Shown one piece after another: positions 1 through 43,848 of a stretch of DNA of 44,889 nucleotides. The stretch covers positions 1-44,889 of the IMG/VR virus record IMGVR_UViG_3300037484_000042. One strand, given 5' to 3'. The notes under the pieces were generated by a model. The model was not told the DNA's origin, did not search any database, and saw only the letters and a program-made list of their open reading frames with translations. How positions within the stretch are numbered: the first letter of the stretch is position 1; each line of letters opens with the position of its first letter. The translations under genes were made by a program, and so were the position numbers. Source of the DNA: a virus. Its lineage: Duplodnaviria; Caudoviricetes.

Positions 1-127
1 GCTAAGCGTATGGGTATGGATGGCATGGAGGTTATCTGTTGTGATGATTGTGCTGCCATGCTTGCCAAGGATGAGTTGTTTAATGCTACTCCTTTTAATA
101 ATGCAATCTACTTACGGGGTAATTAGA
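1..127. repeat. 127-bp terminal overlap identical to 44763-44889 (circular assembly junction)
   Basis: Exact match of the first and last 127 nt. It falls inside the GATase CDS and 127 is a common assembler k-mer, so this is not a biological terminal repeat. Confidence 0.95.
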
Positions 128-304
128 ATGGAGAGGTACCCATGTATTAAGCAACATTTAATCAGTCCATTACGTGTGCTATTCATAACAGATCGGATCG
201 GTATCGTGGTATGTAAAAATGTGTACTGGGAGGCAGGAACCAAGAAGGTTACTTGGTCGCCCACTGCCTTTCGTGAGATTAACGAGATAAGGGGAGGTAA
301 ATAA
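128..304 (+). CDS. hypothetical protein
   Basis: ATG at 128 follows the GATase stop, with a GGGG SD inside the palindrome at 109-125. Confidence 0.5.
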   Translation: MERYPCIKQHLISPLRVLFITDRIGIVVCKNVYWEAGTKKVTWSPTAFREINEIRGGK

Positions 305-305
305 T

Positions 306-500
306 ATGCACTGCAAAGCCTGTGATAAGCAGATGAATGATGATACTTGTAAGTGGAATATGAAGTTAAAATCCTTAGAAAATCTATGCCCTGAATGTTT
401 GGCAGAGGTGGACGAAGTGTTGCTAACTTTTAAAAGACTTGACAATATTAGAGAGGAGAAGTATAATGTATCCAAAGATAAAGATATGGTATCATCCTGA
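306..500 (+). CDS. small Zn-ribbon hypothetical protein
   Basis: GGAGG SD; CKAC...CPEC motif. Confidence 0.6.
   Translation: MHCKACDKQMNDDTCKWNMKLKSLENLCPECLAEVDEVLLTFKRLDNIREEKYNVSKDKDMVSS
439..467 (+). promoter_or_regulatory. sigma70 promoter upstream of the replication module
   Basis: Perfect TTGACA(439-444)-N17-TATAAT(462-467). Confidence 0.85.
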
Positions 501-807
501 TAAGATAAATACTGTAGTTGTACTCTTTAATAAAAATCAATGTGGTATATATTTATCAATGAAAAGTAGTCAACATCGTACGGGTACGCAGTCTGCTGGT
601 TTTGCAGAGAGAGCATTTCTTTTACTGCATCCAGCAGGGAGGCTACTTGTATGATCTACTTTTCTGAAGCAGGAACGGTAATAACGGATAGAGGAATAGC
701 CCTACAATTTCAACCTACGTTTGAATGTCTAAGCTACATCCTTGGCTATGTTGTTCCTTTGAAACCAGCCTATAGGCCTCATCCTGCATATGAAGGAGGT
801 AGAACAG

Positions 808-2409
808 ATGATTATAGGAGATGCCCCTTGCCCCCGATGCCGAGAGAACGGCAGAGATAAGACAGGCAATCATCTTATCCTTTTTGATAATGGCAATGCG
901 TATTGTAATCGTTGCAATTACAAAGTAATTAACAGTGCAAGAACAGAGGAGGAACCATTGAACAAGTACTTCACTATGGCAGAGGTTAGTACATTGCCTA
1001 TCCTACCTATCCAAGCAAGGGGGATACATCAGATCACGTGTGAACACTTCGGGGTACGGGTGGCCTTGGATGAAGAGACAGCATCAACCATCATCAACCA
1101 TGCATACCCTTACTTCAACAGTAAGATGCAATTGCAGAGGTATAAGATACGTGATGTAGCTAATAAGAAGTTCATGCTGATTGGTGATAAGTGTGAGGAT
1201 CAACTACTCTTTGGTCAGCAGAATGTACCGAGTGGTGGGAGTAAGCGATTACTTATCTGTTGTGGTGAGTGTGATGCTATGGCGGCATGGCAGATGTTAC
1301 GTAAGAGGAATAGTAATTATCCTGCTCATGTAGTATCACCCATACATGGGGAGAACTTGGACAGCATCAAACAGAATGCCGCATTCATTCAGTCCTATGC
1401 AGAGATTGTAGTGGCTGGTGATATGGATGCAGTGGGTCGTAAGTTTGCTAATGATATAGCCCTACTCTTTGGCCCTGCTGTACGTATCATGTCCTTCTCC
1501 GAGAAAGATGTGAATGATATGCTGATGCAGGGTAAGGATCAGGAGTTCATTGATGCTTACTACAATGCCAAGCCATACAAGGCAGACTACATTGCATCTG
1601 TTGATGATATCTTTGAGGATGCGATTAAGATGCCAGAGTGGGGTCTCTCATACCCTTGGCCCTCATTGACAGCCTTATCCTATGGTATCAGACGTAAGGA
1701 GTGCATCTTCCTTGGTGCTGGTGTTGGTATCGGTAAGACTGATTGGGCTTTGCAACTACAGGAACACTTGATTAACTTTCATGGGGTAGTGCCGGGGCTT
1801 CTCATGCTTGAGCAACCTGTTGGTCGTACACTCAAGACCCTAGCTGGTAAGTTTGCAGGTATTCCCTTTCATAAGCCTGATGCAAACTTTACACAAGATC
1901 AGCTGATTGAAGGGATTGATAGACTGAGGGATAAGGTCTACCTCTTTAATCATTATGGTGTAAAGGATTGGGATAGTGCTAAGAAAGCTATTCGTACTAT
2001 GGTTGTATATCATGGGATCAAAGATATTTTTATTGATCCTATCACAGCTCTCGTCTCTCATCTGAGTAGTAGTGAAGCTAATGATGAGATCAATAAGATC
2101 GCTGGTGAGTTAGCAAGCATGACACATGAGCTTGACTTCACAGCCTATGGGTTCAGTCACCTTAATCCACCTAAGACTGGCCCCCCACATGAGCGTGGTG
2201 GTATGGTACATGAGTCACAGTTCACAGGTAGTCGTGGATTGATGCGGTATGGTCACTACCTCTTCGGTCTTGAAAGGAATAAAGATCCAGAGTTAACTGA
2301 AGCTGAAAGAAATCTTACCAAGTTCGTACTGCTAAAGGATAGGGAGTTTGGTAATAGTGGTTCCTTTTATATTAAATACAATAAGGATACTGGAACGTAC
2401 TTGGAGTAG
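808..2409 (+). CDS. T7 gp4-like DNA primase-helicase
   Basis: N-terminal Zn finger (CPRC...CNRC), TOPRIM (GECDA, DMD), Walker A GAGVGIGKT, FIDPIT, FTGSRG, LLKDREFG; GGAGG SD before ATG 808. Confidence 0.95.
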   Translation: MIIGDAPCPRCRENGRDKTGNHLILFDNGNAYCNRCNYKVINSARTEEEPLNKYFTMAEVSTLPILPIQARGIHQITCEHFGVRVALDEETASTIINHAYPYFNSKMQLQRYKIRDVANKKFMLIGDKCEDQLLFGQQNVPSGGSKRLLICCGECDAMAAWQMLRKRNSNYPAHVVSPIHGENLDSIKQNAAFIQSYAEIVVAGDMDAVGRKFANDIALLFGPAVRIMSFSEKDVNDMLMQGKDQEFIDAYYNAKPYKADYIASVDDIFEDAIKMPEWGLSYPWPSLTALSYGIRRKECIFLGAGVGIGKTDWALQLQEHLINFHGVVPGLLMLEQPVGRTLKTLAGKFAGIPFHKPDANFTQDQLIEGIDRLRDKVYLFNHYGVKDWDSAKKAIRTMVVYHGIKDIFIDPITALVSHLSSSEANDEINKIAGELASMTHELDFTAYGFSHLNPPKTGPPHERGGMVHESQFTGSRGLMRYGHYLFGLERNKDPELTEAERNLTKFVLLKDREFGNSGSFYIKYNKDTGTYLE

Positions 2410-2745
2410 CTATGAAAATATGTTATTGTAATACATACGAAGCTTACTTCTTGACCCTAGAAAATAATCGGGTGTTGTGGTTAGCTCAGAGACAGGTTGG
2501 TCAGATTGATTACCATCGACTTTGTAGGTACGATACAGAGATCAATGAACGGAGGGTGGAGACATGAAGATCACCATATCAAAAGGGGGATGATAGATGT
2601 GTGCTTCTGCATCGTGGTTATGGGAGGGGGATAGTATTACTACAGTATGGTCCCAACTACGTTGAGCATGAGAGGGATTGGACACCCGATAATTACTTTG
2701 AAAGGTTATCCTCTGATATCAGCCTTAATAGCCGAGGTATACACA

Positions 2746-3543
2746 ATGACACTTATAGGAGATAGTGAGAGTGATGGATTTAAGTATGAAGCTACACGAT
2801 TGTGGATGGTAGTTACTTATAATGTTGAGAGTAAGGGATGGATTATATCCCTTGATCAACCCATTAGTGATTATGATATGGAGGGTATCTGTTTAATTAC
2901 AGGTGTAAGTAGTCCTCAAGTATTCATTGGTCATGAAGAACACCTCATGATTATGAAACAACATAAGCTAGTCTTTCACAATGGTATCATGCATGATTTC
3001 CCCTTGATACGTAAGCTATATCCGTGGTGGAAGGAAGGGGAGAAGGATGATACCTTTATTATGTCCTCTCTCTTCAACCCTGATCGTGAGGCACCTACGG
3101 GTAGTAAGAAACCTCATAGTATTGAGGCATGGGGCATACGCTTCGGACAGAGGAAGGTAGTGTACGATCAGTGGGATAGACAGACAGCCCTTATGCTTAT
3201 CCGCTGTATTGAAGATGTTAAGATAGGACATAGGACGTATGACCATCTACGTATTGAGAGTAAGGGGTGGGATTGGTCACGTTCCTTACAGCTTGAGTAC
3301 ATGATGGGTAAGATACAAGCACAGCAAGAGATGAATGGTGTTACCTTCGATGTGGATAAGGCACACACCATCCTCTCACAGATAGATGAGGAGGTAGCTA
3401 CGATTGACACCGTTGTATTAGAGCAGATACCGAGAAGAGTTGTATCAGTTGGAGCTGAGGTTAGTAAACCTTTTAAAAAGAATGGTACATACACTAAACA
3501 AGTGGAGGATTGGATGCATGAATGTGAAGGGCCCATTCACTAG
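2746..3543 (+). CDS. DNA polymerase A, part 1 (3'-5' exonuclease plus start of thumb)
   Basis: ExoI GDSESDG, ExoII FHNGIMHD, HSIEAWG, ExoIII RCIEDV, QEMNGVTFD; GAGG SD before ATG 2746. Confidence 0.9.
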   Translation: MTLIGDSESDGFKYEATRLWMVVTYNVESKGWIISLDQPISDYDMEGICLITGVSSPQVFIGHEEHLMIMKQHKLVFHNGIMHDFPLIRKLYPWWKEGEKDDTFIMSSLFNPDREAPTGSKKPHSIEAWGIRFGQRKVVYDQWDRQTALMLIRCIEDVKIGHRTYDHLRIESKGWDWSRSLQLEYMMGKIQAQQEMNGVTFDVDKAHTILSQIDEEVATIDTVVLEQIPRRVVSVGAEVSKPFKKNGTYTKQVEDWMHECEGPIH

Positions 3544-4943
3544 GATTAACTACAATGTAATTAACCTTAACAGTGATACCCAAGTCAAGGCATATCTTCT
3601 CTCACAAGGATGGCAACCTACTCAATGGAACTATAAGAAGGATGGTAAGAAGTGGGTGTATGATGAGAAGGGTAATAAGGTAAAGACTAGTCCTAAGCTA
3701 ACGGAGGATAGCTTTGCTAGTGTTGATGGTGATATACCTAAGCTAGTAGCTAGGCGTAGTGTGTTACTGCATCGTAGGGGTACGATAAGTAATCTTAAAG
3801 ACCCTGAGAATAAGGGATGGCTAAGTAATGTTAGACCTGATGGGAAGATTGAGGCATGTGCTGTACCACAAGCATGTAACACTGGAAGATTCAGACACAG
3901 TGTGGTAGTGAATGTCCCTAAGGCTAGTCCCAAGGTACCGTATGGTGAGGCTATGCGTTCCCTGTTCATTGCATCTCCCGGCTATACGATGGTAGGTGTG
4001 GATGCTAAGGCTCTTGAAGCACGCACAGAGGCACACAATTGCTTTCCCTTTACTGGTGGTGAAGCTTATGCTCACACCCTTGTAGATGGGGATGTACATG
4101 CCTTTAATGCCGCTATCTTTGGAACAGATAGGGATGGTGCTAAGGCACCTAAGTATGCGTTATGAGTTGGCGCATATAAAATCCTGTGAACTCAGGAAAT
4201 ATCTCACTGAGACAATCCTGAACCAAGCTTAGCAGAGAACTATATGAGGAATATAGAGTGTCCATAGATCGCACGTGGGTAGCACTGGCGGGGAGACTGC
4301 TTTGAAGGCGCAACGACTATCCCTTTTGGGAGTACACTCAAGTGAGTGGAAGCGCAGGATACCAGCAATGGTAATGATATAGTCTGATCTGTATGGCGAC
4401 ATACAGCAGCTTGAATAAAGCGGGGTGAAGTTAGCGACATCACCTGAACATCATGTAACATATGGAGCATACGCACCGAAGCTAGCCGCTACACTTAACT
4501 GTTCATTAGAGCGTGCCGATGAGTTGTATGCAGCATTCTGGACAGGTAACACTGCACTGGCTGAGTTCAAGGACAGTGTGATAGAAGAATTTAGAAAGAA
4601 TGGAGGTAAGCATGGTGGATTCATAAGAGGATTGGATGGTAGAAAACTGTATGGACGAAGTGAACATAGTCTAGTCAATCTGAAATTTCAGAGCGATGGA
4701 GCAATCCTTGTTAAGGCGGCTATGTGTTTCCTCTTTGCTAAGTGGTTGCCTAAGAGTGGGATAGATTATCGTCTATTGATTCAGCAGCACGATGAGTGGG
4801 AAGTAGAGGTTAGGAATGGACAGGAGGATGAGTATATTAAGCTGGCTCTCCTATCCCTAGAGAAGGCAGGACAATACTTTAATTATAACGTACCAATCCT
4901 AGGTGATGCTAAGGTAGGACAGAATTGGTCAGAAGTTCATTGA
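3518..4943 (+). CDS. DNA polymerase A, part 2 (polymerase domain); join(3518..4160,4456..4943), 376 aa
   Basis: NLNS..QVK, TGRF, motif A VGVDAKALEAR, motif B restored by splicing (RDGAKAPKYALTYGA), FQSDGA, motif C QHDE; GGAGG SD before ATG 3518. Confidence 0.9.
4161..4455 (+). mobile_element. group I intron without ORF (295 nt) in DNA polymerase motif B
   Basis: 5' exon ends in U and pairs UAUGCGU/GCGCAUA (P1); terminal G4455; P10 GUUG/UAAC; core elements GTGAACTCAGGAAA, AATCCTGAACCAAG, CAACGACTA, GATATAGTC. Removal restores the frame and KxxxYxxxYG. Confidence 0.93.
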
Positions 4944-4952
4944 AAATAATCC

Positions 4953-4980
4953 TTGCACTCCACTAAATCTATGGTATAAT
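4953..4980 (+). promoter_or_regulatory. sigma70 promoter (extended -10) for the SSB/nucleotide-metabolism block
   Basis: TTGCAC-N16-TATAAT with TG at the extended -10 position; palindrome copy just downstream at 4995-5011. Confidence 0.75.
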
Positions 4981-5056
4981 ATAGTTAAGAGTATTAATTA
5001 CAGTGTAAGTATGTAAGTAGCATTCTATTATTAATAAAAGAAAGGAGAAGTAAAGT

Positions 5057-5509
5057 ATGATTATCAATGGCGTAGCATATTGGGCATCCCTTCAGACTCC
5101 TAATACTAAGTTTGAACCCTGCTGGTGTATCACTGTGGAAGTAGATGCAGCTACTAGCACTACCCTGCAGGAGGCAGGACTTAAACCTAAGATGGTTGAT
5201 GGTAAGGCTCGGTATCAGTTCAAGCGTTTGACGATTGACAAGAAGACCAATAGTCCTAATCCTCGACCACCTCAGCTTAATGTAGATGGTGTACCCTTCG
5301 CTGATAATGTGGGTAATGGTAGTCTTGTTACTATTCAGGCCTTCATCAAACCTTGGAAGTGGAATGGTAAGAGTGGTGTGAAGTCAGAGCTTCAGGGTGT
5401 TAAGGTTATGGAGCTGGTACCCTTCGGTGAGGTTAAGCCTGATGATGGTAGTGAGTTGGGTATGGCCCCACCTGCATCACCCACTGATGATGAGTTGTTT
5501 AGTGAATAA
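5057..5509 (+). CDS. single-stranded DNA-binding protein (T7 gp2.5-like)
   Basis: VGNGS, LQGVKVMELVPF, acidic aromatic tail DDELFSE; position after the polymerase. Confidence 0.75.
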   Translation: MIINGVAYWASLQTPNTKFEPCWCITVEVDAATSTTLQEAGLKPKMVDGKARYQFKRLTIDKKTNSPNPRPPQLNVDGVPFADNVGNGSLVTIQAFIKPWKWNGKSGVKSELQGVKVMELVPFGEVKPDDGSELGMAPPASPTDDELFSE

Positions 5510-5649
5510 GAAAGGCTATAGGCTAATTCAAGTCCTCTCCTCCTTGAGCTTCTATGGTTGGAAGCCTTGGAAGGGAGGGCTTTACTATCACAAAGAATGG
5601 AGGCGCATCTGCAAGATGCTTAAGGCCTACCATATGGGAGAGTGAATGG

Positions 5650-6351
5650 ATGAGTAATTACTATCAAGACGATAAGGGACGAGATATCCCAAGGGTTACA
5701 AACATTACAGGTCAGCTAGATAAGAGTGATGGGTTGATGCGGTGGTCTGCACAACAGACAGCTCTCTATGTATTGGCACAGTATGGGTTGGATAACAGAG
5801 ACCTTGCAGAGGTATGTAGGGTAGCACCGGAAGAGTATAGAAACTTGAGTCAAGCCGCTTGTGATATTGGTAGTGAGGTTCACTCCCGTATAGAACAAGA
5901 TCTATGGGGCTACAAGTATGCTGGTGAGACGAGTAAGATTGGAGACATGGCCTTTGCTTCTTACAAACAATGGGCAGATGAGTTCAAGCCTGAGCCTATC
6001 GCTACGGAAGAGAGAGTGATGACAGATAGGTATGCTGGTACCTGTGATTTCTATGGGTACATTACAGTCAAGGGTAAGCGAAAGCTTTACGTGCTTGATT
6101 GGAAGACAAGCAACTACCTTGGTAAGGATTACTCATACCAGATTGCAGCCTATCGTCAATGCTATCCTGAAGCTGAGGGTTGTGGTATCCTTCGTATTGA
6201 TAAGGAGCAACCTAGTATCTGGCAGTGGAGGGATACATCTAAGACTTATGAAGCTGATAAGGAAGTCTTCAATACCCTTGTCTCTCTTTGGTGGCTAACG
6301 CATCCCAACAAAAGCAAGGACTATGACAAGAAAACAAAAGAAGCGGAGTAA
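5650..6351 (+). CDS. PD-(D/E)XK exonuclease
   Basis: PRVTNI, GSEVH, YAGTCD, LDWKTS, QIAAY motifs. Confidence 0.8.
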   Translation: MSNYYQDDKGRDIPRVTNITGQLDKSDGLMRWSAQQTALYVLAQYGLDNRDLAEVCRVAPEEYRNLSQAACDIGSEVHSRIEQDLWGYKYAGETSKIGDMAFASYKQWADEFKPEPIATEERVMTDRYAGTCDFYGYITVKGKRKLYVLDWKTSNYLGKDYSYQIAAYRQCYPEAEGCGILRIDKEQPSIWQWRDTSKTYEADKEVFNTLVSLWWLTHPNKSKDYDKKTKEAE

Positions 6352-6700: not shown

Positions 6701-6703
6701 TGA

Positions 6704-7420: not shown

Positions 7421-7443
7421 AACTAATTACGAGGTAATTAAGT

Positions 7444-7596
7444 ATGCCCGTCTATACATTGTTTCATTCTGTTGATAAGGTTAATAGTTTATATCAGGTA
7501 TGGGACTACGGTACGTATGAAGAAGCAGAGGAACATATGGCAGAGCTAAAGGAAGGCTCATCTTATATCCGTCTAACCATTGAGGTAGATGAATAA
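7444..7596 (+). CDS. hypothetical protein (50 aa)
   Basis: Below the ORF-track cutoff; GAGG SD embedded in the palindrome at 7424-7440; TAATG coupling to the next ORF. Confidence 0.55.
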   Translation: MPVYTLFHSVDKVNSLYQVWDYGTYEEAEEHMAELKEGSSYIRLTIEVDE

Positions 7597-7760
7597 TGTT
7601 TACACGTGAAGAGATCAAGGAGAAGATGAAGGAGAGAGAGAGTCCCGATGATATTTTGGATCTTCTCGACCCTACGACAGAGGATCTTGTGGAGGCATTA
7701 GACTTCTTCTTAGAAGATGATGCACTCTTTCTTAATTTGTGTGAGAGGTATGAAGATTAG
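7596..7760 (+). CDS. small acidic hypothetical protein (54 aa)
   Basis: MFTREEIKEK...ILDLLDPTTEDLVEAL; translationally coupled to the upstream ORF. Confidence 0.55.
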   Translation: MFTREEIKEKMKERESPDDILDLLDPTTEDLVEALDFFLEDDALFLNLCERYED

Positions 7761-8408: not shown

Positions 8409-8411
8409 CAT

Positions 8412-10132: not shown

Positions 10133-10177
10133 TTATTGAAATTGGGACTGAATTGAAGAATTTAGGTATTATTATAA

Positions 10178-10244
10178 TTGGTATCTCTTCGGTAACAAAA
10201 CTCTTGTCGACTATTTTACATTATCTATTAACCACCAAGGTGAT
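10178..10244 (+). repeat. 67-bp perfect direct repeat, copy 1
   Basis: TTGGTATCTCTTCGG...CCACCAAGGTGAT is identical to 11082-11148. Confidence 0.95.
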
Positions 10245-10272: not shown

Positions 10273-10551
10273 ATGATACCAATAGAAAAGATAAGGGATG
10301 GGCTGCGTGTTAAGCTTGATCCAACTGCATTCAGGAGTAATGCGTATAACGAGCGTGTCTTACGGATACACCCCAACCTATTCACAACTATCTACAAGGT
10401 AAAGAGGGGTCGTTGTAGGGAGATATTCTTAGAGGGATTAGGCTCCTTTGAGTTTGAGTACTACCTTCTCAACTATGCAGATTCAGTACAGCAATTCCTA
10501 TCCAGAGGATCAGCTAGTGGTAAGTGGAGGGTTGCTGAGAAAGGAAAGTAA
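10273..10551 (+). CDS. hypothetical protein
   Basis: GGTGAGG SD; lies within the repeat-flanked block. Confidence 0.55.
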   Translation: MIPIEKIRDGLRVKLDPTAFRSNAYNERVLRIHPNLFTTIYKVKRGRCREIFLEGLGSFEFEYYLLNYADSVQQFLSRGSASGKWRVAEKGK

Positions 10552-10660
10552 GTAGGGTATGTAGTTATTGTTGGTTGCACCAAGAGAACCTATAAAGGTA
10601 TTATACCATTCTTTTCTTTCCCCTGTCAAGGAAAAAATATACCATAAGGAGTATGTACAA

Positions 10661-10855
10661 ATGGAAACTGAGAGCAGAGACGTAGGGATAAAACAAATTG
10701 AAGAACGTATGGTTGAGTTAGGGAAACAAAGGGACGCAATCGACGAACTAGTTTCAACGCTGTATGGTAGGTACAAAAAGAAAGTAGGAGTAAAGAGAGA
10801 TGAGGAGGGATGCTGGATTACCTATACTGGAAAATATGAGAGATACTGTAATTAA
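10661..10855 (+). CDS. hypothetical coiled-coil protein
   Basis: AAGGAG SD before ATG 10661. Confidence 0.5.
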   Translation: METESRDVGIKQIEERMVELGKQRDAIDELVSTLYGRYKKKVGVKRDEEGCWITYTGKYERYCN

Positions 10856-10888
10856 AATTAATTAGAAGTAGGATTATAGGAGAAAAAA

Positions 10889-11155
10889 ATGAAAAAAGAA
10901 TACAAAGAAAATGAGCCTTGGGGTGCAAAAGCTGATGAAATCCTGGAAAAGAGGGTGTATATTAATAAGCGCTTAGAGGCCAATATCTGCCAGGATTGTG
11001 GAAATGGGTTGACTGATGCTGGTGGAGAGTGGGTTATAGAGATGGTGTGCTGGAATTGTGTTACAGAATGTGAAAGAGAGGTTGGTATCTCTTCGGTAAC
11101 AAAACTCTTGTCGACTATTTTACATTATCTATTAACCACCAAGGTGATTAAATGA
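10889..11155 (+). CDS. Zn-ribbon hypothetical protein (C-terminus read through the 67-bp repeat)
   Basis: AGGAG SD; CQDC...CWNC motif. Confidence 0.5.
   Translation: MKKEYKENEPWGAKADEILEKRVYINKRLEANICQDCGNGLTDAGGEWVIEMVCWNCVTECEREVGISSVTKLLSTILHYLLTTKVIK
11082..11148 (+). repeat. 67-bp perfect direct repeat, copy 2 (contains the RNR SD)
   Basis: Identical to 10178-10244. Confidence 0.95.
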
Positions 11156-13873
11156 TAACTGATTATCAAAAGTATATTCATAAAAGTAGGTATGCCCGAT
11201 GGAGGGAAGAAGATAAAAGGAGGGAGACTTGGGATGAGACTGTTGCAAGGTATCTTGATTTTTTCACTGCTCGCACTATGGATGTGCCTGAGTACACTAG
11301 CCGTGTGGAAAGCCTTCGAGATTCTATCACCAATCTGGAAGTAATGCCCAGCATGCGTTGCCTTATGAGTGCAGGTAAGGCACTTGACAGGGACCATGTG
11401 GCTGGGTATAACTGTGCATACATGCCTATCGACCATCCCCGTTCCTTTGATGAGACGATGTACATCTTACTGTGTGGTACGGGTGTAGGGTTTTCAGTTG
11501 AGCGTCAGTTCGTACAGAAGCTACCTGAAGTAGCGGAGGAGATGTTCGATACAGACACGACAATTAAGGTAGCTGATTCAAAGATTGGATGGGCATCTGC
11601 GTTACGGGAGTTGATCTCCTTACTCTATTCTGGCAAGTGTCCTCAGTGGGACATGAGTAAGGTACGTCCTGCTGGTAGTAGACTACATACCTTCGGTGGT
11701 AGGGCTAGTGGTCCTGAACCACTAAATAGGCTGTTTGCTAATGCAGTTAGGATCTTTAAGGGAGCTAAGGGGAGAAAGCTAACCTCCTTAGAATGCCATG
11801 ATCTTGTTTGCTATATCGCTGATACTGTTGTTGTTGGGGGGGTTAGGAGATCTGCATGCATCTCGCTATCAAATCTCTCTGATGATAGGATGCGTTCTGC
11901 TAAGTATGGTGAGTGGTATCACGACTCTCCGCAACGTGCTCTTGCTAATAATAGTGTGGCGTATACTGAGAAGCCTGACTTCAGATCATTTCTGAGGGAG
12001 TGGGAAACACTGTATAAGAGTAAGGCAGGAGAGAGGGGGGTTGTTAATCGTGAAGCCTTCAAGAAGAAGTGTGCTAAGATCGGTAGAGAAAAGGATTACG
12101 ATTTTGGTACTAATCCTTGCGGAGAAATTATACTTCGGCCTAATCAATTTTGTAATCTCACGGAACTTATTGTCAGACCCGAGGATACACTTGAAACTCT
12201 TAGGGTCAAAGTACGAACTACTACGATACTTGGAACACTACAAGCAACGCTTACTGACTTCAGATACTTGAGACCTATCTGGAAAAAGAATACAGAGGAA
12301 GAGGCATTACTTGGCGTGAGCTTGACAGGAATTATGGATCATCCTATAATGAGTGGCAGGTCTGGTGAAGAGACGCTGATTGAATGGGTAACTATCTTAC
12401 GACAAACTGCAAAGGAGACTAATGAAGAGTGGGCAAGAATCTTGGGGATCAATCCTGCTGCTGCCATTACTTGCGTTAGTGATTAGCGCCAATATAGAGT
12501 AATTTATATTTGCAAACCCTGTGAATTGCTGGAAACTCTTAGCACATTATGGTGAAGACAATCAGCAGCCAAGCATTAGTAACATAAGGCTTGACATATT
12601 AAACAAAATATGTCATACTATATGTATGCTGATGAAGGTTCAACGACTATCTCGAAAGAGAGTACCTTCAAGTGAGGGGAAGTTCAGGGCATCCACTTTG
12701 GATGATGATATAGTCTGGTCTATATGGAAACATATAGCAGTGAGGGTAGGTATGTTCTCTGTTTATTATATTGATTCTGATTTAACTGATGCAATCTATA
12801 TAGGTATGACAAAGAAGGATATTAATACTCGATTTAATTAGCACAAATCTGCTGCTCGTAAGGGTATAAAATCTCCTCTATATGATTGCATACGAAAGTA
12901 CGGAGAACAGGCGTTCTTTATAACTACGATAGAGATATGCGATACACGTGAGTCCTGCTGTAAAGCTGAAATATTTCATATCACACATGCTCGTAGTTGT
13001 AAACGGAGGCTATTAAACCTAGCCGCTGGTGGTGATGGTGGAGATGTGATTCCAAATCATCTGAAGGATGAGCGGAAAGCTAAGTTGTCTGCTTCAAGAA
13101 TCGGTGGAAAACCTTTTCTAGGGAAGCGACATACAGAAGAAACTAAGGCTTTATGTGGAAAATACGGTAAACTTAGATGGGATATGTATGGACGGTATCC
13201 CTCTGAAGTGACCAAGTATTCCTTTAAAGACGCACACCTTAAGTTTAATATTAGCAAAACACATTACTATCGCCTACTAAAACGGGATAAGAGTAACGAC
13301 CTTATCTGAACAATACGTAAGCCATCTGGTACGGTATCTCAGCTCGTTGATTGTAGTAGCGGTATCCATCCTAGGCTTTTTAGTACTTATGTGCGTACAG
13401 TTCGTACCGATAAGTATGACCCTATTGGCCTCATGCTTTCGGATCAAGGGGTCCCATACAGCCAAGACCAGTACAACTACTACTTCAGATTCCCCATCAA
13501 GAGTCCATCACATTCTGTAGTAGCAAAGGATATGTCCTCCTTACAACAGTTGAAACTGTGGAAGATTTATGCAGATCATTGGTGTGATCACAATCCATCC
13601 CAGACTATTTACTATACGGATGATTCCTTCCTTGAGGTAGGACAATGGGTATGGGAAAACTTTGATAGCATTGGCGGTCTCTCCTTCTTTCCACATATGG
13701 ATAATGTGTATGAGAATGCACCATACACAGAGATTAATGAGGAGAAATATGAAGAACTTCTATCTACCTTTCCTGCAGAGATTGACTGGTCTATACTCAC
13801 AGAGTACGAAAAGGAAGATACAACTACAGGAACTCAAGAGTATGCTTGCTCAGGAGGGAAGTGTGATATATGA
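11152..13873 (+). CDS. nrdJ: class II (B12-dependent) ribonucleotide reductase; join(11152..12476,13318..13873), 626 aa
   Basis: PSMR, YNC, GTGVGFS, GGVRRSA, TNPCGE, spliced ITCVKPSGTVSQL, C-terminal CSGGKC; no beta-subunit gene found. Confidence 0.93.
12591..12619 (+). promoter_or_regulatory. intron-internal sigma70 promoter, probably for the homing endonuclease
   Basis: TTGACA-N17-CATACT with extended -10 TG. Confidence 0.6.
12752..13309 (+). pseudogene. GIY-YIG homing endonuclease with one in-frame TAG (12839-12841)
   Basis: SVYYI...IYIGMT...RFN*H...E...LNLAAGG and NUMOD3-like GKRHTEETK; the frame is continuous on both sides of the stop. Confidence 0.88.
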
Positions 13874-14098
13874 TATATCTTAAACGATTAGTAGATTTTC
13901 TAGCAGTGCCGTTCATCCTTGTTGGGGGGATAGCTTGCCTTATCTACTCGGCTATGATTGCTGGATGGGTGGTTATTGGTAATTGGTATGAGACTGTGAG
14001 TAGGGATAATGAAGAGGGTTAGGAGGTATGTGGGTGTGCTACTACTGACACTCACTATCCTTCTTAATTACAATGTAGTTAATCAAGGAGAAGACGCT

Positions 14099-14574: not shown

Positions 14575-14618
14575 AAAAATAGGAGAGTCTCAAAGTTCTA
14601 GAGGCTCTCCTATTTCTT
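14575..14618. terminator. bidirectional intrinsic terminator between the convergent arms
   Basis: AAATAGGAGAGTCTC / GAGGCTCTCCTATTT stem with A- and T-tracts on the flanks. Confidence 0.85.
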
Positions 14619-37028: not shown

Positions 37029-37573
37029 TAAGCAAGAACCCCACTATTTACAATGTAAACATTAGTACCATCTGATAGGTAAGAGAGAAGGTAAGTTCCT
37101 GTGGTGCTAATGGTGAAAAGGGTATTGGACCCAACCTTAGTCGTAGCTGCTGCAGTAATGGCGTAGTTGCTACCATTAATCAGTAGGATGAAACCAGACT
37201 GTCCTGCCGTGATGTTAGTGAAGGTCAGGGTTCCACCAGCAGAGGGGGTACATTTGAAATTGTTTGTGGCATTAAGATCAAAGGATAAATCATTATCCGT
37301 GGTAATTGTGCCACGCTGTGAGACTGTGAATGTCTGTGCTACATCCGTCTTTGCAGTATCCGCATCATACCCTTGAACAGTTACACCGATATCACCTGTC
37401 TCAAGCATGTTCGTGAGATCACTCTCCTTAGCAAGTGGGAAACCACCAGCAGTTACCCCATCATGTACTACAAGCGTCTCCTTATCGGTATCTACAGTTA
37501 CCTCAGCTGCTACACCAGTAAAGGCAGCGTGTTCTACGGTAGTACCCTTTCTCCATTGTACTTGAGTTGCCAT
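37028..37573 (-). CDS. tail fibre protein with an Mtd N-terminal-like domain
   Basis: QVQWRKGTT.EH..FTG..AEVTVDTDK.TLVVHDG.TAGG.PLA. Confidence 0.75.
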   Translation of the reverse strand: MATQVQWRKGTTVEHAAFTGVAAEVTVDTDKETLVVHDGVTAGGFPLAKESDLTNMLETGDIGVTVQGYDADTAKTDVAQTFTVSQRGTITTDNDLSFDLNATNNFKCTPSAGGTLTFTNITAGQSGFILLINGSNYAITAAATTKVGSNTLFTISTTGTYLLSYLSDGTNVYIVNSGVLA

Positions 37574-37582
37574 ATATACTCC

Positions 37583-38089: not shown

Positions 38090-38136
38090 TATAATAACTC
38101 CTTAGAGGGATAAGATACATCTCTGCTTATACACAT

Positions 38137-38165
38137 ATTATAACATACTTGTTAGAGAAAGTCAA
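38137..38165 (-). promoter_or_regulatory. sigma70 promoter for the structural arm
   Basis: Minus-strand TTGACT-N17-TATAAT with extended -10 TG. Confidence 0.85.
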
Positions 38166-38669
38166 GATAAATATAACATACGTGTATATAATAATATTTA
38201 GAAGAGTACTATGAGTATATTAAGAGTATATAATACCCATATCCATACTCTAAGGGTTCTTAGTATTATTAATATATATATATATATATAATATAGTATT
38301 AAGAGTTTGTCAAGAGTAGATATTAAATAAACTAAAAAAACTTTAGAGAACTTGTGAGATCTAAGAGTTCTCTTAGATACTTAAGAGATTTTAAGGAACT
38401 CTAGAATTTCTATGAGAAAAAATTTAGTGGTAATACGCACACATACTCCTTATCCCAACCCACAGGGTACTCCCCAAAACTCTGAGATATTAGGATACCC
38501 GAACATTGTTCTCCACAACCATAAAATGTTCAGAGAAACACACAAGATATGGTATGGTGTAAGGGTTTGGGGATACTACATATGGTGCGAAATACCAAAG
38601 ACTATCAATCCCACCCATCCTTAATAGTAATCATTCCCAGTCATCTTAGTTACATACCTAATTAATAGC

Positions 38670-38685
38670 TGGCACACTACTTGCA
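38670..38685 (+). promoter_or_regulatory. sigma54-type -24/-12 element
   Basis: TGGCACACTACTTGCA matches TGGCAC-N5-TTGCW. Confidence 0.6.
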
Positions 38686-38688
38686 TAT

Positions 38689-38704
38689 AGCACATTCCAT
38701 GCCA
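38689..38704 (-). promoter_or_regulatory. sigma54-type -24/-12 element (convergent with the previous one)
   Basis: Minus strand reads TGGCATGGAATGTGCT, with correct GG-N10-GC spacing. Confidence 0.45.
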
Positions 38705-38762
38705 CACTATACTATACTGATCAGTCTACTATTATTTCATCATGAGCGTAAGCGAATTTTTA

Positions 38763-38778
38763 TGGCACGATACTTGCT
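38763..38778 (+). promoter_or_regulatory. sigma54-type -24/-12 element (consensus)
   Basis: TGGCACGATACTTGCT matches TGGCACG-N4-TTGCW exactly. Confidence 0.65.
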
Positions 38779-38834
38779 ACGCGCACACACTACATTATAT
38801 AAAAGAAAAAGATTTGTATGGTTCATTTTTATTG

Positions 38835-38863
38835 TTGACAACCTTTTTAATATATGGGATAAG
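38835..38863 (+). promoter_or_regulatory. early sigma70 promoter
   Basis: TTGACA-N17-GATAAG with extended -10 TG and an upstream T-tract; the -10 is weak. Confidence 0.55.
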
Positions 38864-38869
38864 GACACA

Positions 38870-39220
38870 TAGCTTATTGCTTGCTTTACCTGTTCTCTCA
38901 CATAGCCGCTTGTCTGGTTCTGCCTCTTGCCTGTTCTCTCAACTCTGAGAGCAAGAAGCATCCCAACCGATAGACAACCCGGCCCACAATAGAAACCTGT
39001 TCCCACGTCCTGCCAATGTGTCGTGACTCTCTGACAAAGAGGCACATAACTCGGACCAGTATAGGCGGTAGTCAAGCAACGTGAGATTGGAAAGGGCAAG
39101 CACTAGCCATGTTTGCAGACTGGAACAGAGACAAGGCAATCCCGATTGATATACCCTAGCTAGTTTGAATCACTGGCCGTAATGGGTTGTCCTTGCAAGG
39201 GTATTAACTAGCATCCTTTT
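38870..39220 (+). ncRNA. putative structured leader/ncRNA
   Basis: No credible ORF; several long complementary segments (see findings). Confidence 0.45.
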
Positions 39221-39417
39221 AATGCTTACCACTTGCAAGGCAATCGGTTATCAGGTCTTTGGATGTTATAGGATGCGACTAAATATATTAGGCGTGTCTA
39301 ATAAAATCCAAACCGGAGGGACTATGGTCATAGTAAAATTATTTCCGCTCTGCTGCATTGTATCCGTTCTTGTTGCACTAATCGTAGTTAATTAAACAAC
39401 CAAACCAAAATGAGGAA

Positions 39418-39975
39418 ATGAAAATGAATATCAAAAATGAATTGAAGAAAGCGTTCGAAGCAAACCAGAAGCAAGTTATCACCTATCACGCCATTGTTGC
39501 GGAGTTAAAAGCGAAAAAGGTTAAGCCGGAAAATGTCAATGCCTTCCTCTACTCACTGTTCAATGACTGGCCTATGAAGATTGATAAGAGCAAGAAAGCC
39601 GTTGCCATTGGGATTAGTAATACATTGAAGGATAAGCCAGACTATATGCCTGCCAAGTACGTCAATGCTTTCAGTGTATGGAGAAGCAGAAACTTTGACG
39701 CTGGTACTTTCACCGAGAAAACAAAGGAAAGCAAGGCAAAGGCGAAGGCAAAGAATCTGAAGGCCAAGGTTGAGAAGGAAAAGGCAGAGGAAAATGGTGT
39801 TGCCGTGGCTGGTTCCTTGCGTGAGGTTGACGTGCCTAAATATCTGGCATTAATTGCGGAGCTGGCAAAGAAGAAAGGTAATGAGAAAGCAGTCAAGCTC
39901 TGCTCTGAATTGAACAAAGCATTCGCAGTCAAGGCCGTGGCCAAGCTGGTAAACAAGAAGGGGAAAAGAAGTTAG
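39418..39975 (+). CDS. Lys/Ala-rich basic early protein
   Basis: First large early ORF; GAGG SD; strongly basic. Confidence 0.75.
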   Translation: MKMNIKNELKKAFEANQKQVITYHAIVAELKAKKVKPENVNAFLYSLFNDWPMKIDKSKKAVAIGISNTLKDKPDYMPAKYVNAFSVWRSRNFDAGTFTEKTKESKAKAKAKNLKAKVEKEKAEENGVAVAGSLREVDVPKYLALIAELAKKKGNEKAVKLCSELNKAFAVKAVAKLVNKKGKRS

Positions 39976-40002
39976 GTCAACCATAATTACAAGGTAATTA
40001 AA

Positions 40003-40209
40003 ATGCCAAGAATATGTATAGTAAAAAGGAGTTGCTATATTTACATTGGAGATATGAGGGCAGATGGTGAGATTGAAGAGGGTTGCCATCTTCTCCAAAT
40101 CTATTATGATGGTATGGTGCGTCCATGTGGTTCATATAGTGGTGATATAAAACTCTACAAAGATAGCAGGAGGATTACAAATCATGAGCGTAAAAGAAAT
40201 TCGGGGTGA
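40003..40209 (+). CDS. hypothetical early protein
   Basis: AAGG SD inside the palindrome at 39984-40000. Confidence 0.6.
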   Translation: MPRICIVKRSCYIYIGDMRADGEIEEGCHLLQIYYDGMVRPCGSYSGDIKLYKDSRRITNHERKRNSG

Positions 40210-40385
40210 AGTTGTAGGTGCCATTATTATAATCTCAGTTCTTGTCATGTGTGTAAGTACATGGCTCAATTCAATTTAGAACACTGGACTACCTATAGGA
40301 TCATGGAGTACTGTCACATGGAGTACCATGCTTACTCTCTACGATTCTATAAGGTGTGGACAAAACTAATTACGAGGTAATTAAG

Positions 40386-40568
40386 ATGAAGAATCAAAAG
40401 AATAACTTTGTGGTGTACTTCAAGGGCAAGAGGAATACGATTAAGATTGCCTCTCATAGCAGTCTCCTTGCCGCACAGTGCATGGTCAATGACTTGAAGG
40501 AAGGGACGAAGGGGAAGGGCTATCCCTATATTGCAGTGGTCAATCCCATGCTGGTTAAAAGGATATAG
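40386..40568 (+). CDS. hypothetical early protein
   Basis: GAGG SD inside the palindrome at 40367-40383. Confidence 0.6.
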   Translation: MKNQKNNFVVYFKGKRNTIKIASHSSLLAAQCMVNDLKEGTKGKGYPYIAVVNPMLVKRI

Positions 40569-41046
40569 GTGTATGTCGAGTCTACTATGGGTGGGTAATA
40601 ATGTTTACGTTCTGGTGTGTGTAGGAAATGAAAGAACAGCAATACAACTAGTGGGTGATAGTGTGGGTAAGAGAACGTATGGTTTCATTCCTGTGGATTT
40701 TAATAAGCGTTTAACATTGAGGATTAAACGAGAGTCAGGAGCATAGCACCATGCCCTTGTAAGTACGAAGTATCCTACCCTACTAGGGTTAATACAAACG
40801 TGGCATGGTGGTACCTTTAAGGTGCCTTAATTACAATGTAAGTAAGGAGGGCGATGATGTGAAGATGATTATAAGACATAACGGCAGCTATTACATGCAT
40901 GATATTAATGAAATGAAGGCTGTGTGTTTATCATCTCGTCAAAAAAACCAAGATTCCGGTGAGATTGGGAGGGTTTATCCGAGTGTGAGTGATACACATA
41001 GGCATGAAGAGATCAATTTGATAGGACATGAAAGGAGAATGAAGTT

Positions 41047-41823
41047 ATGTATGACCTCATCACGTACAAAAGAGGAAGTAGAAGTGCCAGTATACTCTCC
41101 CGATTGGTGGGCTGTAGACTATACAGTGCGGAGTCGTTCGCGTCGCTTCAACAACGATTGGTACGAAAGGCTTTTCGTTACACGAGACGAGTAATTAATT
41201 GGGGATCATCCGATTCCTTCCTCCTCAATTACAATGTAATTAACAGGCCAGATAAGGTTGCTATTGCCACTAATAAGTTGAAGACATTTGAAGTACTGCG
41301 TCTGGCTGGTGTTTCAATACCTATATACTTCAAGGGTGTAAGGGGTGAGGCACTACTTGCCAATCCTAATGAGGTGATCTATGCACGACACCTGACTCGT
41401 GCTAGTGGTGGGAGGGGTATCACTGTTGTTCAGCCCGGTTCTCCCATCCCCTATGCTCCACTGTACACGGTAGGTATACCCTGCAAGCGTGAGTATCGGG
41501 TTCATGTATTCAATGGGGCTATGATTGATCTAGTTGCTAAGTGCAAGAGGAATGGAGATAGTGATGTTGGTGATTACATTCACAATCATTCGTTGGGATA
41601 CATCTTCACACGCAATAGTGTGAGAATCCCCGATGATGTGCGGGCTAACCTATCAGCCCTTGCTATCAGTGCTGTTACTGCATTGGGCTTGGACTTCGGG
41701 GCTGTTGATATCATTCGCAGTACAGAAGGACAGCTCTATGTACTGGAAGTTAATACTGCTCCCGGTATTGAGGGTACAACCTTGGAGGCCTACGTTAATG
41801 CCTTTAAAAATTATGATGAGTAG
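41047..41823 (+). CDS. ATP-grasp ligase (RimK/glutathione synthetase-like)
   Basis: VINWG, NKL.TF, GGRGI, EYRVHV, LGLDFGAVD, VLEVNTAPG. Confidence 0.92.
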   Translation: MYDLITYKRGSRSASILSRLVGCRLYSAESFASLQQRLVRKAFRYTRRVINWGSSDSFLLNYNVINRPDKVAIATNKLKTFEVLRLAGVSIPIYFKGVRGEALLANPNEVIYARHLTRASGGRGITVVQPGSPIPYAPLYTVGIPCKREYRVHVFNGAMIDLVAKCKRNGDSDVGDYIHNHSLGYIFTRNSVRIPDDVRANLSALAISAVTALGLDFGAVDIIRSTEGQLYVLEVNTAPGIEGTTLEAYVNAFKNYDE

Positions 41824-41976
41824 TATGAAAAATATTCTCTTACTTGATGATCAAACAGGTAAGACAACACTTCTTCATACCCCTGAGACACATCGCTATA
41901 GAGAGGAGGAGTGTACTGCATGGATCATGTATCGTTTCATCGAGTTGAATAAAAGAAGAGAGGGGGAGGGAAACAG

Positions 41977-42159
41977 ATGATCTTTATCAGTAGATATGGA
42001 ACAGTTATCCTCATACCTGATGCGGAGGATGAGGAAGGTAATATGACTGGTGTTGGCTTACAAAGCAGAGAGAGTGAGTCCTTCATTGGGTATCGTTGTG
42101 GGACATGGTATCGTCCTGTATGTACTGAGATAAATGAACTCCTAACCAAGAGAAAGTAA
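41977..42159 (+). CDS. hypothetical protein
   Basis: GGAGG SD; ends in the palindrome at 42157. Confidence 0.5.
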   Translation: MIFISRYGTVILIPDAEDEEGNMTGVGLQSRESESFIGYRCGTWYRPVCTEINELLTKRK

Positions 42160-42204
42160 TTACAGTGTAAGTAAAAAATCATAATAATAACCGGAGGTAG
42201 TAAG

Positions 42205-43848
42205 ATGAACTGTGCATGGTGCAATACGAGCATTAACGACAAGACCCCCACCGGATACAAATTGAGTGAGGATGCCCCCGAAATTCCAGCCCTGTGTATC
42301 TCCTGTTGGGAGAAGGCGGCTGTGTGTAACACGTGTAATGGTGTCTTTGAATATCCTAAGAACATTATGTACACTGGTCGTGACGGTAGGTATATGTGTA
42401 ATTCATGTGCTACTGACCTTGAAACCTGTGAAGATTGTGGAAAAAAGAAACCACACTTGAAGGACGTGTTTGGTAAGAAGAGGTGTATCTCTTGTGCCAA
42501 GAAGTACTACTACTGTGGGGGCTGTAAGGAGTGGCATACTCTTACTGCTGTTCCTTGTATGGATACCAGTGATGATCTTCACCTTGAGTATCCCTATCTG
42601 TGGGCAGAGTATAAGAGTTTTACTATCTGTCGTACCTTCTTCCTCAACAGTATCACCCCTCGTATGCAGAAGAAAAGAGTCTTTAGCTGTACTCACTGTA
42701 TGGATAAGAGTTCTCATGTGTTTAAGAGAGAGGGTGTGACGTATGATCTGTGTCAACGCTGTGCTAAGACAACAAAGAAGTGTACTCACTGTGGTATATG
42801 GCATCCAGAGGTAAGTAGCTATGGTGGTACACTTCTGTGCTATACGTGTAAGAGGACTCACTATCGTCCCTGTACTTGCTGTAATAAGCTGAGGAAGAAG
42901 GTAGAGTGTAAGAATTATTTCTGTACTGATTGTCGGAAGACTCATCTCCTATGTGCAAACTGTGATAGGTATCATCCTATCGCAGATCACCAAGAATTTA
43001 ATGGTCAATTACTTTGTAATTACTGCTTCAATAATCTTAGGACTTGTAAGGTTTGTAAGAAAAAGGCTCTGTCCCACTATGCTTCTAATATGTGTAGATC
43101 ATGTGCATTGAGTGTAGGGTGTGGTAAGATTGAGCCCTACACTCTCAAGCCTACCCCCGTCTTTCATGGTAAGGGTACGTTGCACTATGGCTTTGAGAAT
43201 GAAGTATCGTTCAGCTCTGAAGTGAGCCTGAAGGGTAAGGTGGCTGAGGTACTGAAAAACTTTGAAGAGAATGAATTGATTGTCAAGTCAGATAGTAGTA
43301 TTGACTATGGCTTTGAGGTAGTCTCTCACCCTCATACCTTTGAGAAGTATCAGGATAAGAAGTGGAAGGATATGTTCGTATCTGAGATGCGTAACTCTGA
43401 TTCATGTGGGATGCACGTTCATGTAAACCTTGAATCCTTTACTTCCTTTCATCTGTATAAGTTTGTATCCTTTATCCATAAGCACCCCACGCTTATGACG
43501 AAGATCAGTGAGAGAAGTCCCAACCATTACTGTCAGCTTTATTCCGAGAGTAATATGGCCCCCGTTATTAAGAAGTTTAAAAAGGATGGGGAGAAAAGTG
43601 ATCGGTATCGTCGTGTTAATCTTGGCAGTAAGACCATTGAACTCCGATGCTTTGCTGGCGTAACCACTTATGAGAGATGGATGAAGAATATTGAGTTTAT
43701 CCGTGCGCTGTATGAGTACACTCTGAACACTGGCAACCTTGATCTTAATCCTCGCACATGGAAGCTCTTTGTTGTCAAGAATAAAAAGATGTACCCCAAT
43801 CTTAACACCTTCATGTGTTCACTCTACTCCATGCCTAGTGGTGAGTAA
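42205..43848 (+). CDS. amidoligase (COOH-NH2 ligase) with a multi-CxxC N-terminal region
   Basis: YGFENE, KSDSSI, GFEVVSHP, SCGMHVH, TIELR in the C-terminal domain; 17 CxxC pairs before it. Confidence 0.85.
   Translation: MNCAWCNTSINDKTPTGYKLSEDAPEIPALCISCWEKAAVCNTCNGVFEYPKNIMYTGRDGRYMCNSCATDLETCEDCGKKKPHLKDVFGKKRCISCAKKYYYCGGCKEWHTLTAVPCMDTSDDLHLEYPYLWAEYKSFTICRTFFLNSITPRMQKKRVFSCTHCMDKSSHVFKREGVTYDLCQRCAKTTKKCTHCGIWHPEVSSYGGTLLCYTCKRTHYRPCTCCNKLRKKVECKNYFCTDCRKTHLLCANCDRYHPIADHQEFNGQLLCNYCFNNLRTCKVCKKKALSHYASNMCRSCALSVGCGKIEPYTLKPTPVFHGKGTLHYGFENEVSFSSEVSLKGKVAEVLKNFEENELIVKSDSSIDYGFEVVSHPHTFEKYQDKKWKDMFVSEMRNSDSCGMHVHVNLESFTSFHLYKFVSFIHKHPTLMTKISERSPNHYCQLYSESNMAPVIKKFKKDGEKSDRYRRVNLGSKTIELRCFAGVTTYERWMKNIEFIRALYEYTLNTGNLDLNPRTWKLFVVKNKKMYPNLNTFMCSLYSMPSGE

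Follow-up and report, generated by a model that had tools for sequence, protein, structure and literature searches.

The DNA that we analysed is a single stretch of 44,889 nucleotides, here called the window. Its terminase (64% identical to that of ICBM1), its structural gene set and its two convergent arms suggest a Zobellviridae-like podophage, a placement made on gene content and terminase identity. No RNA polymerase was found in the window, and it has this as well as the convergent arms in common with the Zobellviridae (cobaviruses ICBM1 and SIO1, and GX1). The earlier note on this DNA had seen no recognisable repressor or integrase, and the 70 ORFs that we scanned likewise contained neither an integrase nor an HTH repressor. 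The first large ORF of the early arm, gene 1 (39418–39975, + strand), encodes an orphan protein of 185 aa, which we regard as the candidate binder of the sites described below. Ahead of gene 1, a likely early promoter (38835–38863, + strand; TTGACA, 17 nt, weak −10) was identified by eye and was not among the promoter-scan results; between it and gene 1 there was no palindrome at three or fewer mismatches. A promoter-like site of the structural arm (38137–38165, − strand; sigma-70-type, 11/12 match, extended −10) has no palindrome adjoining it.

The early arm carries 12 copies of a 17-bp palindrome, TAATTAC-N3-GTAATTA, which can be compared with those of a close relative, G001 (70–80% nucleotide identity to the window). 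In both genomes the gene 1 stop codon is followed by the first palindrome. Sites 1 and 2 are perfect and have all 14 arm bases kept in G001; site 1 (39984–40000) shares bases with the ribosome-binding site of ORF 40003, and site 2 (40367–40383) with that of ORF 40387 and with a stop codon. Site 3 (40828–40844), immediately 5′ of a ribosome-binding site, is absent from G001. Site 4 (41226–41242) lies within an ATP-grasp gene (41047–41823) and is kept in G001 at 13/14 arm bases, with a changed spacer and 104/180 in the flanks. Site 5 (42157–42173) occupies the gene junction ahead of the amidoligase gene, where G001 has a different site ahead of the same gene, and site 6 (43006–43022), within the amidoligase gene and in a reading frame unlike that of the other coding sites, is absent from G001, as is site 7 (109–125), at the end of the glutamine amidotransferase gene. 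The copy at 44871–44887 is a repeat of site 7 within the 127-bp end overlap of the window. Site 8 (915–931; 13/14 in G001) falls in the part of the primase-helicase gene that encodes its zinc finger, and a sigma-70-type promoter with a 12/12 match (439–467) lies upstream of it. A variant with a 4-nt spacer (2894–2911) is located within the first DNA polymerase ORF; its G001 counterpart is a perfect 3-nt-spacer site a few codons downstream, where the amino acids are changed. Site 9 (3547–3563; 14/14) is some 30 nt inside the second DNA polymerase ORF, which likely starts at 3518, and site 10 (4995–5011; 14/14) lies 14 nt downstream of a TATAAT seen by eye (4975–4980), ahead of the gene for a ssDNA-binding protein. 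Site 11 (7424–7440; 13/14), the third perfect copy, shares bases with the ribosome-binding site of ORF 7444, and site 12 (14065–14081), absent from G001, overlaps the −10 box in a promoter-like stretch (14045–14074) at the last early-arm gene.

The palindromes are far more numerous than shuffled sequence would provide. In 100 dinucleotide shuffles the mean was 0.04 and the maximum 1, and in 200 shuffles in which the proteins were kept and intergenic blocks shuffled the mean was 0.49 and the maximum 2. When only coding sequences were tested, none of 15,876 synonymous shuffles reached the five sites that are wholly coding. Nine copies have one mismatch and none has two, with four further places having three, and the exact core TTAC-N3-GTAA is present in 10/12 sites. 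All 12 lie in the early arm, which makes up 21,162 of 44,762 bp (P = 1.2e-4). These results bear out the earlier note, which had reported the 12 palindromes (all coordinates and letters proved correct, each with at most one mismatch) and their early-arm restriction, and had proposed the comparison with shuffled sequence; the 4-nt-spacer variant (one mismatch) and the lone degenerate core in the structural arm (37045–37061, three mismatches) were also found as it described. The purine-rich spacer that it saw on the + strand in 11/12 sites is there too, and needs no special cause, because the + strand of the early arm has a purine skew and four of the spacers also serve as ribosome-binding sites.

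The changes in the half-sites are symmetric: those seen in one arm recur in the other as reverse complements. This, together with the poor folding of the single strand, fits recognition of double-stranded DNA by a dimer. We therefore considered it highly improbable that the sites are RNA hairpins used for processing or translational control, even though several overlap ribosome-binding sites: calculated folding was only 0 to −2.8 kcal/mol, 4/12 sites do not fold, and the base changes in the variants disrupt pairing, that of the closing pair in G001 included, without compensatory change.

G001 has 10 sites, all in the early arm; seven are co-located with window sites and keep 95/98 arm bases, compared with 58–81% in the flanks, and three are new relative to the window. 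The earlier note had looked to relatives for such conservation, and its suggestion that a dimeric protein would bind the site finds support in the early-arm confinement and in G001. Beyond this relative the motif becomes sparse. There were two matches in G005 and one each in G003 and G004; 7/31 records of distant relatives had a single match at two or fewer mismatches and none had more; and within 14/64 parts of a scan of viral sequences the exact 17-mer was found only in single-site loci. Unlike the window, ICBM1 and T5S1 showed no cluster of palindromes and no homolog of gene 1. We concluded that the palindromes, spread over the early arm, are likely a selected array of putative binding sites.

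A de novo scan of 19 genomes for early palindrome clusters yielded a comparable layout built on other sequences. G029 has five early copies of AGTATCT-N2-AGATACT and G016 has six early copies of TGTCCTAGGACA/G at one or fewer mismatches, and each cluster surrounds an orphan gene of 234–245 aa; comparison of the two gene families gave a probability of 59.5% and E 9e-5. A profile of the G029 protein detected homologs in G027 (E 4e-50) and in GX1 (PQ867844.1), and in both of these GTTGTCTAGACAAC lies around the G029-type gene. G027 and GX1 are not independent, since their motif is shared by likely descent (118/241 residues identical), and as four-copy clusters also arose in 2/30 shuffled pieces, the two count only as a shared-motif pair. 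A search with GTTGTCTAGACAAC only, which served as a prospective test of the motif-gene association, returned 35 contigs including one new multi-site contig, with eight sites at one or fewer mismatches, and this contig encodes an orphan-family homolog (E 1.9e-5) with a site on either side of the gene; among the single-site contigs, 0/33 had an orphan-family match within 4 kb. Thus five other phages have three different palindromes around an early orphan gene of 200–250 residues belonging to one family. A site lies ahead of the gene in all five (G029, G016, G027, GX1 and the new contig), and none does in the window or G001. Searches for more contexts of the family found only G027 and G029, and the G016 protein had no match among cultured phages. 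In the Atlas PF25746, which bears on the comparison with phiC31 below, came up as a weak neighbour of the G029 protein by features (0.81), with no Pfam match to PF25746 at E <= 5.

Gene 1 of the window shares the position of the orphan family, being early and beside the palindrome cluster, with the first site 8 nt past its stop codon and the gaps between sites growing with distance from there, from 383 to 6641 bp. Its sequence homology to the G029, G027, GX1 and G016 proteins is marginal: E was 0.0022 with one profile and 2.7 with a profile of seven sequences, and with an 11-sequence profile gene 1 was not listed at E <= 5; the hhalign probability was 4% and the pairwise z 3.0. The protein is basic (42 K+R versus 20 D+E) and is 76% identical in G001. 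It fell in no Pfam or PHROG family. Other searches with it gave five matches in one case and six in another; viral contigs added only G001, and metagenomes one spurious partial match. The predicted model has a helical N-terminal domain, a Lys-rich helix and a C-terminal helical hairpin. Foldseek gave no match at E <= 0.001, the best VIA Z of 6.9 was confined to the hairpin, and no known DNA-binding fold was matched in these fold searches, which barely covered the N-terminal domain; this does not establish a new fold. The phage-encoded binder that the earlier note had offered as an alternative, with 39418–39975 as an example, has the better support.

That weak link to the relatives' family, and the several small ORFs common only to the window and G001, would suit a different binder, either another small phage protein (for example 40387–40568 or 7444–7596) or an unnamed host regulator. 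We consider this quite unlikely. The 120 bacterial matches with phage-type flanks revealed no recurring regulator. Fifty-six of them were inside ORFs, and the 55 ORFs adjoining such matches included two LysR, one ribbon-helix-helix and one winged-helix protein, with no MazE and no LexA.

Two named host regulators have sites related to the palindrome. The first is LexA, through which the earlier note had suggested that a dormant or pseudolysogenic state of the phage might be under host SOS control. Its statement that the Bdellovibrio LexA box is TTAC-N3-GTAA, the core of the phage site, is correct according to two secondary sources (PMC3323433, PMC8565304). When lexA upstream regions were examined in the two phyla sampled (one locus, L450, being dropped from the set as it gave no translation), the core occurred in only 3/30 from Bdellovibrionota and 0/32 from Desulfobacterota, and the three that carried it had other flanks, with two, three and four mismatches to the phage site. 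None of the 97 scanned ORFs beside exact bacterial matches was LexA. On these two phyla and these ORFs we rejected LexA as the binder and judged SOS control of the phage extremely improbable.

The second regulator is MazE. Of the 113 ORFs neighbouring the 121 exact bacterial matches 97 were scanned, and 14/97 were MazE-family, with two more recognised by sequence. Among mazE upstream regions chosen by protein, 29/79 contained the exact 17-mer and 63/79 a copy with three or fewer mismatches, compared with 1/77 control stretches; locus L311, which had no upstream DNA, was left out. The E. coli mazEF 'c' site is given as GTATCTACAATGTAGATTG (PMC4333400), and its TAC-AAT-GTA core is in common with the phage palindrome. 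As a side observation, these regions provide a 19-bp operator consensus for a widespread bacterial mazEF subfamily, usable in its own right, which consists of two GTAATTAC units with outer G and C/T. The phage sites might then mimic a host mazEF operator and be bound, in the early arm, by a host AbrB-type MazE or MazE-MazF. The phage would in that case be borrowing a repressor that senses stress, or its array would act as a decoy, so that the host operon is de-repressed and the toxin stays neutralised. For phages making use of MazEF there is a precedent at the protein level (PMC10769878). A phage-encoded MazE/AbrB binder was rejected, as no MazE-like gene was found at E <= 10 (best E with a custom profile, 3.5) and PF04014 was absent from G000, G001 and G005; the lack of such a gene would suit reliance on the host protein.

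The likeness to the AbrB-type mazE-mazF operator, although it extends to an identical 17-bp core, stops at the flanks. The outer base is a purine in 145/148 mazE half-sites and a pyrimidine in 34/44 phage half-sites, with G in 106/148 and 5/44, respectively, and when this base was scored most phage sites fell in the lowest quarter of mazE scores. The bacterial operator occurs once per operon, directly upstream of mazE and over a −10 box with a −35 upstream; the phage sites, in contrast, have pyrimidine/purine flanks, mostly no −35 box and no mazE gene, and 1/12 overlaps a scanned promoter. Moreover, the mazE set is mostly from Acidobacteria, with at least five loci in common with the discovery set, and MazE would not account for the fact that other phages have different palindromes around genes of a single family. 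We regard binding by host MazE as unlikely.

Binding by the gene 1 protein need not mean silencing, and the array could instead pace DNA entry, organise or shield the DNA, or steer replication. The sites are densest toward the likely leading end and thin along the arm; five are within genes; and the layout is that of linear cobavirus genomes, in which the early arm is at the left end. We consider such a role rather unlikely, because most palindromes coincide with a ribosome-binding site, a gene junction or a promoter box, as regulatory sites would, and because five relatives have a site ahead of the orphan gene, as in autoregulation.

We propose, giving it slightly better than an even chance, that the array is bound by a dimer of the phage's first early protein (39418–39975), which would turn off the early and replication genes lying behind gene 1. 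Host RNA polymerase would transcribe gene 1 first, and its protein would build up and dimerise. With a site over or after a promoter (14065 and 4995) the dimer would block initiation, and elsewhere it would stall elongation at gene starts, while the site-free structural arm would go on being transcribed. The likely use would be a timed early shut-off during infection, and a further effect could be the exclusion of superinfecting kin with the same palindrome.

Such control would resemble that of known temperate phages. Repressor c of the Streptomyces phage phiC31 binds many palindromic sites, conserved inverted repeats, across the genome, and so also pairs one phage repressor with many palindromes; unlike the window, phiC31 is a temperate siphovirus with an integrase. 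The stoperators of the temperate cluster A mycobacteriophages (L5, TipsytheTRex) are described as 13-bp asymmetric sites bound by an HTH-domain monomer (PMC9283540). Like the window, with its 12 sites and the 10 of G001, these phages have many copies of one site and depend on host RNA polymerase, and as in our proposal a block of both initiation and elongation has been put forward and site sequences are lineage-specific (PMC9283540). The window differs in having symmetric palindromes in one arm only and no integrase or HTH repressor found. The cluster A repressor has HTH and Stoperator domains; the window's candidate protein had no Pfam, PHROG or fold match in searches that barely covered its N-terminal domain.

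More tentatively, and as something possible rather than probable, integrase-less podophages may have an undescribed dimeric repressor family, encoded by the first early gene and paired with lineage-specific palindrome arrays, that provides shut-off or immunity outside lysogeny; here the site would have converged on the host mazEF core, and the host antitoxin may read the array. The literature searched, which included few subscription papers and no supplements, held no report of such a system. These phages encode neither an RNA polymerase nor a sigma factor and have host-type promoters in both arms, which raises the question of how their genes are timed; a repressor made from the first gene and acting on an array of operators would, if true, explain that timing and would extend stoperator-like control to phages without an integrase. 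The seven genomes, with four different palindromes, provide matched candidate protein-site pairs for studying how specificity changes, and these pairs may also be useful as orthogonal repressors.

A scan of the window for TAATTAC-N3-GTAATTA with at most one mismatch gave 13 matches, one of which is a duplicate within the 127-bp end overlap, leaving 12 sites per 44,762 bp. All 12 lie in the early arm (P = 1.2e-4), which bears out the earlier note's claim of twelve palindromes confined to that arm. No place in the window had exactly two mismatches to the motif, and spacers of 0 to 8 nt other than 3 nt never gave more than one match each at the same threshold. Comparison with shuffled sequence, which the earlier note had called for, showed that the array exceeds chance, with mean counts of 0.04 in 100 dinucleotide shuffles of the window and 0.49 (largest 2) in 200 shuffles that kept the proteins fixed, versus the 12 observed. 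Five sites lie inside the tested coding sequences, a number reached in 0 of 15,876 synonymous shuffles.

When the sites are counted from the likely left end, the first falls 8 nt past the stop codon of gene 1 (39418–39975, + strand), the first large early ORF, and the gaps between successive sites then widen (383, 461, 398, 931, 849, 1865, 806, 2632, 1448, 2429, and 6641 bp). Most sites overlap a stop codon, ribosome-binding site, or promoter box; the remaining sites are within the primase, polymerase, ATP-grasp, and amidoligase genes. Identical half-site variants were found in both arms of the palindrome, as reverse complements, and RNA of the sites folds weakly or not at all. These two properties point to recognition of double-stranded DNA by a dimer, and the poor folding makes it very unlikely that the sites act as RNA hairpins.

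The related phage genome G001 is about 70–80% identical to the window in nucleotide sequence and has 10 sites, all early. Seven of these are at window positions, with arm bases kept at 95 of 98 versus 58–81% in the flanks. G001 lacks five of the window's sites and has three of its own, including one in the polymerase gene that comes with altered amino acids. In more distant relatives the window motif was absent apart from a single loose match in 7 of 31 records, none having more than one. A pentapeptide-repeat gene (locus L133, 14255–14920) is inserted past the second site of G001 and is followed by a new site. G005, a distant relative without a gene 1 match, has two or three loose motif copies (L134; 8556, 13146, 13209).

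By its sequence the window is a Zobellviridae-like podophage: its terminase shares 64% identity with the ICBM1 terminase, and as in ICBM1 an early/replication arm faces a structural arm. Group I introns (Rfam RF00028) were found in the DNA polymerase gene (4105–4406) and the ribonucleotide reductase gene (12467–12737), the latter holding apparently broken NUMOD3/homing-endonuclease-like ORF pieces (~12521–13309); the G001 reductase gene has an intron-like match at a different position. DNA polymerase is encoded in two ORFs (2647–3543 and 3518–4943), of which the second has a ribosome-binding site to itself, and G001 has extra DNA between the two. A ~60 bp repeat (10170–10230, 11088–11150) brackets four ORFs (10273–11155) absent from G001, and genes for an ATP-grasp ligase, a Cys-rich amidoligase, and a glutamine amidotransferase are consecutive in the early arm (41047–44889). 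Where the arms meet, an inverted repeat edged by A and T runs (14577–14615; seen by eye, not in the scan) is likely a bidirectional terminator.

The earlier note had suggested host LexA control on the basis of a Bdellovibrio LexA box with the core TTAC-N3-GTAA, which agrees with two papers (PMC3323433, PMC8565304). However, in the two phyla sampled the core occurred upstream of only 3 of 30 Bdellovibrionota and 0 of 32 Desulfobacterota lexA genes, those three regions differ from the phage site at 2–4 arm positions, and no LexA gene adjoined the exact bacterial matches; LexA as the binder is scarcely credible. Host MazE(F) is a real but minor rival. Of the 97 ORFs scanned next to 121 exact bacterial matches (from 3 of the collection's 64 parts), 14 encode MazE-family antitoxins, with a MazF-like ORF next in nine of these loci by eye. 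Among 79 mazE loci chosen by protein, an Acidobacteria-rich set that partly overlaps the exact-match loci, the exact 17-mer lay upstream in 29, and the 17-mer within three mismatches in 63, versus 1 of 77 controls. The palindrome core is also common to the E. coli mazEF 'c' site, as described in PMC4333400. Against MazE, the outer base differs: 145 of 148 mazE half-sites have a purine there and 34 of 44 phage half-sites a pyrimidine. In addition, 120 bacterial matches with phage-type flanks had no recurring regulator nearby. No MazE is encoded by the phage itself.

The bacterial loci L259–L338 form a widespread AbrB-type mazE-mazF subfamily with operator GTAATTAC-N3-GTAATTAC over the −10 box, often reaching the start codon, an arrangement suggestive of leaderless transcripts. 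In L499, L519, L526, L562, L567, and L574 (Prevotella, Selenomonas, others) TAATTA units with an 11-bp period surround the palindrome. One repeated palindrome-bearing element, possibly an insertion-sequence end, recurs in Chitinophagaceae and unlisted genomes, often near contig ends (L488, L497, L498, L506, L530, L568, L583, L593, L594).

The candidate binder within the window is the gene 1 protein, which is basic and has few homologs. Its model (pLDDT 78, pTM 0.55) predicts a helical N-terminal domain, a helix rich in Lys, and a hairpin at the C terminus; fold searches with this model gave no clear match. In position, size, a short motif, and the C-terminal helices it resembles a family of orphan early proteins from other phages flanked by other palindromes, but with marginal statistics for homology (E 0.0022; probability 4%; z 3.0) and E values of 2.7 and over 5 against larger profiles of that family. 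A site lies upstream of the orphan gene in the five other phages, and none upstream of gene 1 in the window. Because the homology is marginal and no site precedes gene 1, it is by analogy and position that gene 1 is linked to the array. Another binder is improbable.

The orphan family came from a de novo search for repeated palindromes in 19 genomes, which picked out the window and G001 along with clusters in two more phages. G029 has AGTATCT-N2-AGATACT at five sites within 4.5 kb and G016 has TGTCCTAGGACA/G at six sites within 3.8 kb, some in genes; each cluster encircles an orphan gene of 234–245 codons. The protein families of these two genes match one another (probability 59.5%, E 9e-5). 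Homologs were found in G027 with the G029 profile (E 4e-50) and in GX1 (PQ867844.1) by tblastn, with 3 and 4 exact copies of GTTGTCTAGACAAC, respectively, around the orphan gene. Counts of this size are no proof by themselves, since 2 of 30 shuffled pieces and five genomes lacking a homolog also have four-copy clusters. In a prospective test, viral contigs were searched by the GTTGTCTAGACAAC motif alone, the protein profile having been built beforehand. Of 35 contigs with the motif, the one new multi-site contig (8 sites within one mismatch) encodes a 200-residue homolog (E 1.9e-5) flanked by a site on both sides; a homolog lay within 4 kb in 0 of 33 single-site contigs.

Strong sigma-70-type promoter matches occur at 439 and 12322 and, for the structural arm, at 38165 on the minus strand, although promoter-like matches in total were fewer in the window than in shuffles. 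A ~540-nt leader (38860–39400) from the likely early promoter to gene 1 is apparently non-coding, is not kept in G001, and has no Rfam match. The 70 ORFs scanned include no gene for an RNA polymerase, a sigma factor, an integrase, or an HTH repressor, in agreement with the earlier note's reading that the phage has no recognisable repressor or integrase. The Cluster A mycobacteriophage stoperator system, as presented in PMC9283540, works in the way proposed here for the array; the symmetry of the window's site and the lack of an integrase or HTH repressor among the scanned ORFs place the array outside that system. The literature searched, of limited coverage, contained no report of palindrome arrays of this kind in this phage group.

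We consider the odds slightly in favor of silencing of the early arm by a gene 1 dimer on the array; the same binder with a role other than silencing is unlikely. Host polymerase would transcribe gene 1 first, and the gene 1 dimer would then bind the array, blocking internal promoters and stalling elongation, so that the early arm would go silent while the site-free structural arm would keep running. Because the structural-arm promoter is site-free and no integrase was found, we favor a timed shut-off plus kin exclusion, rather than true dormancy, as what the array would provide.
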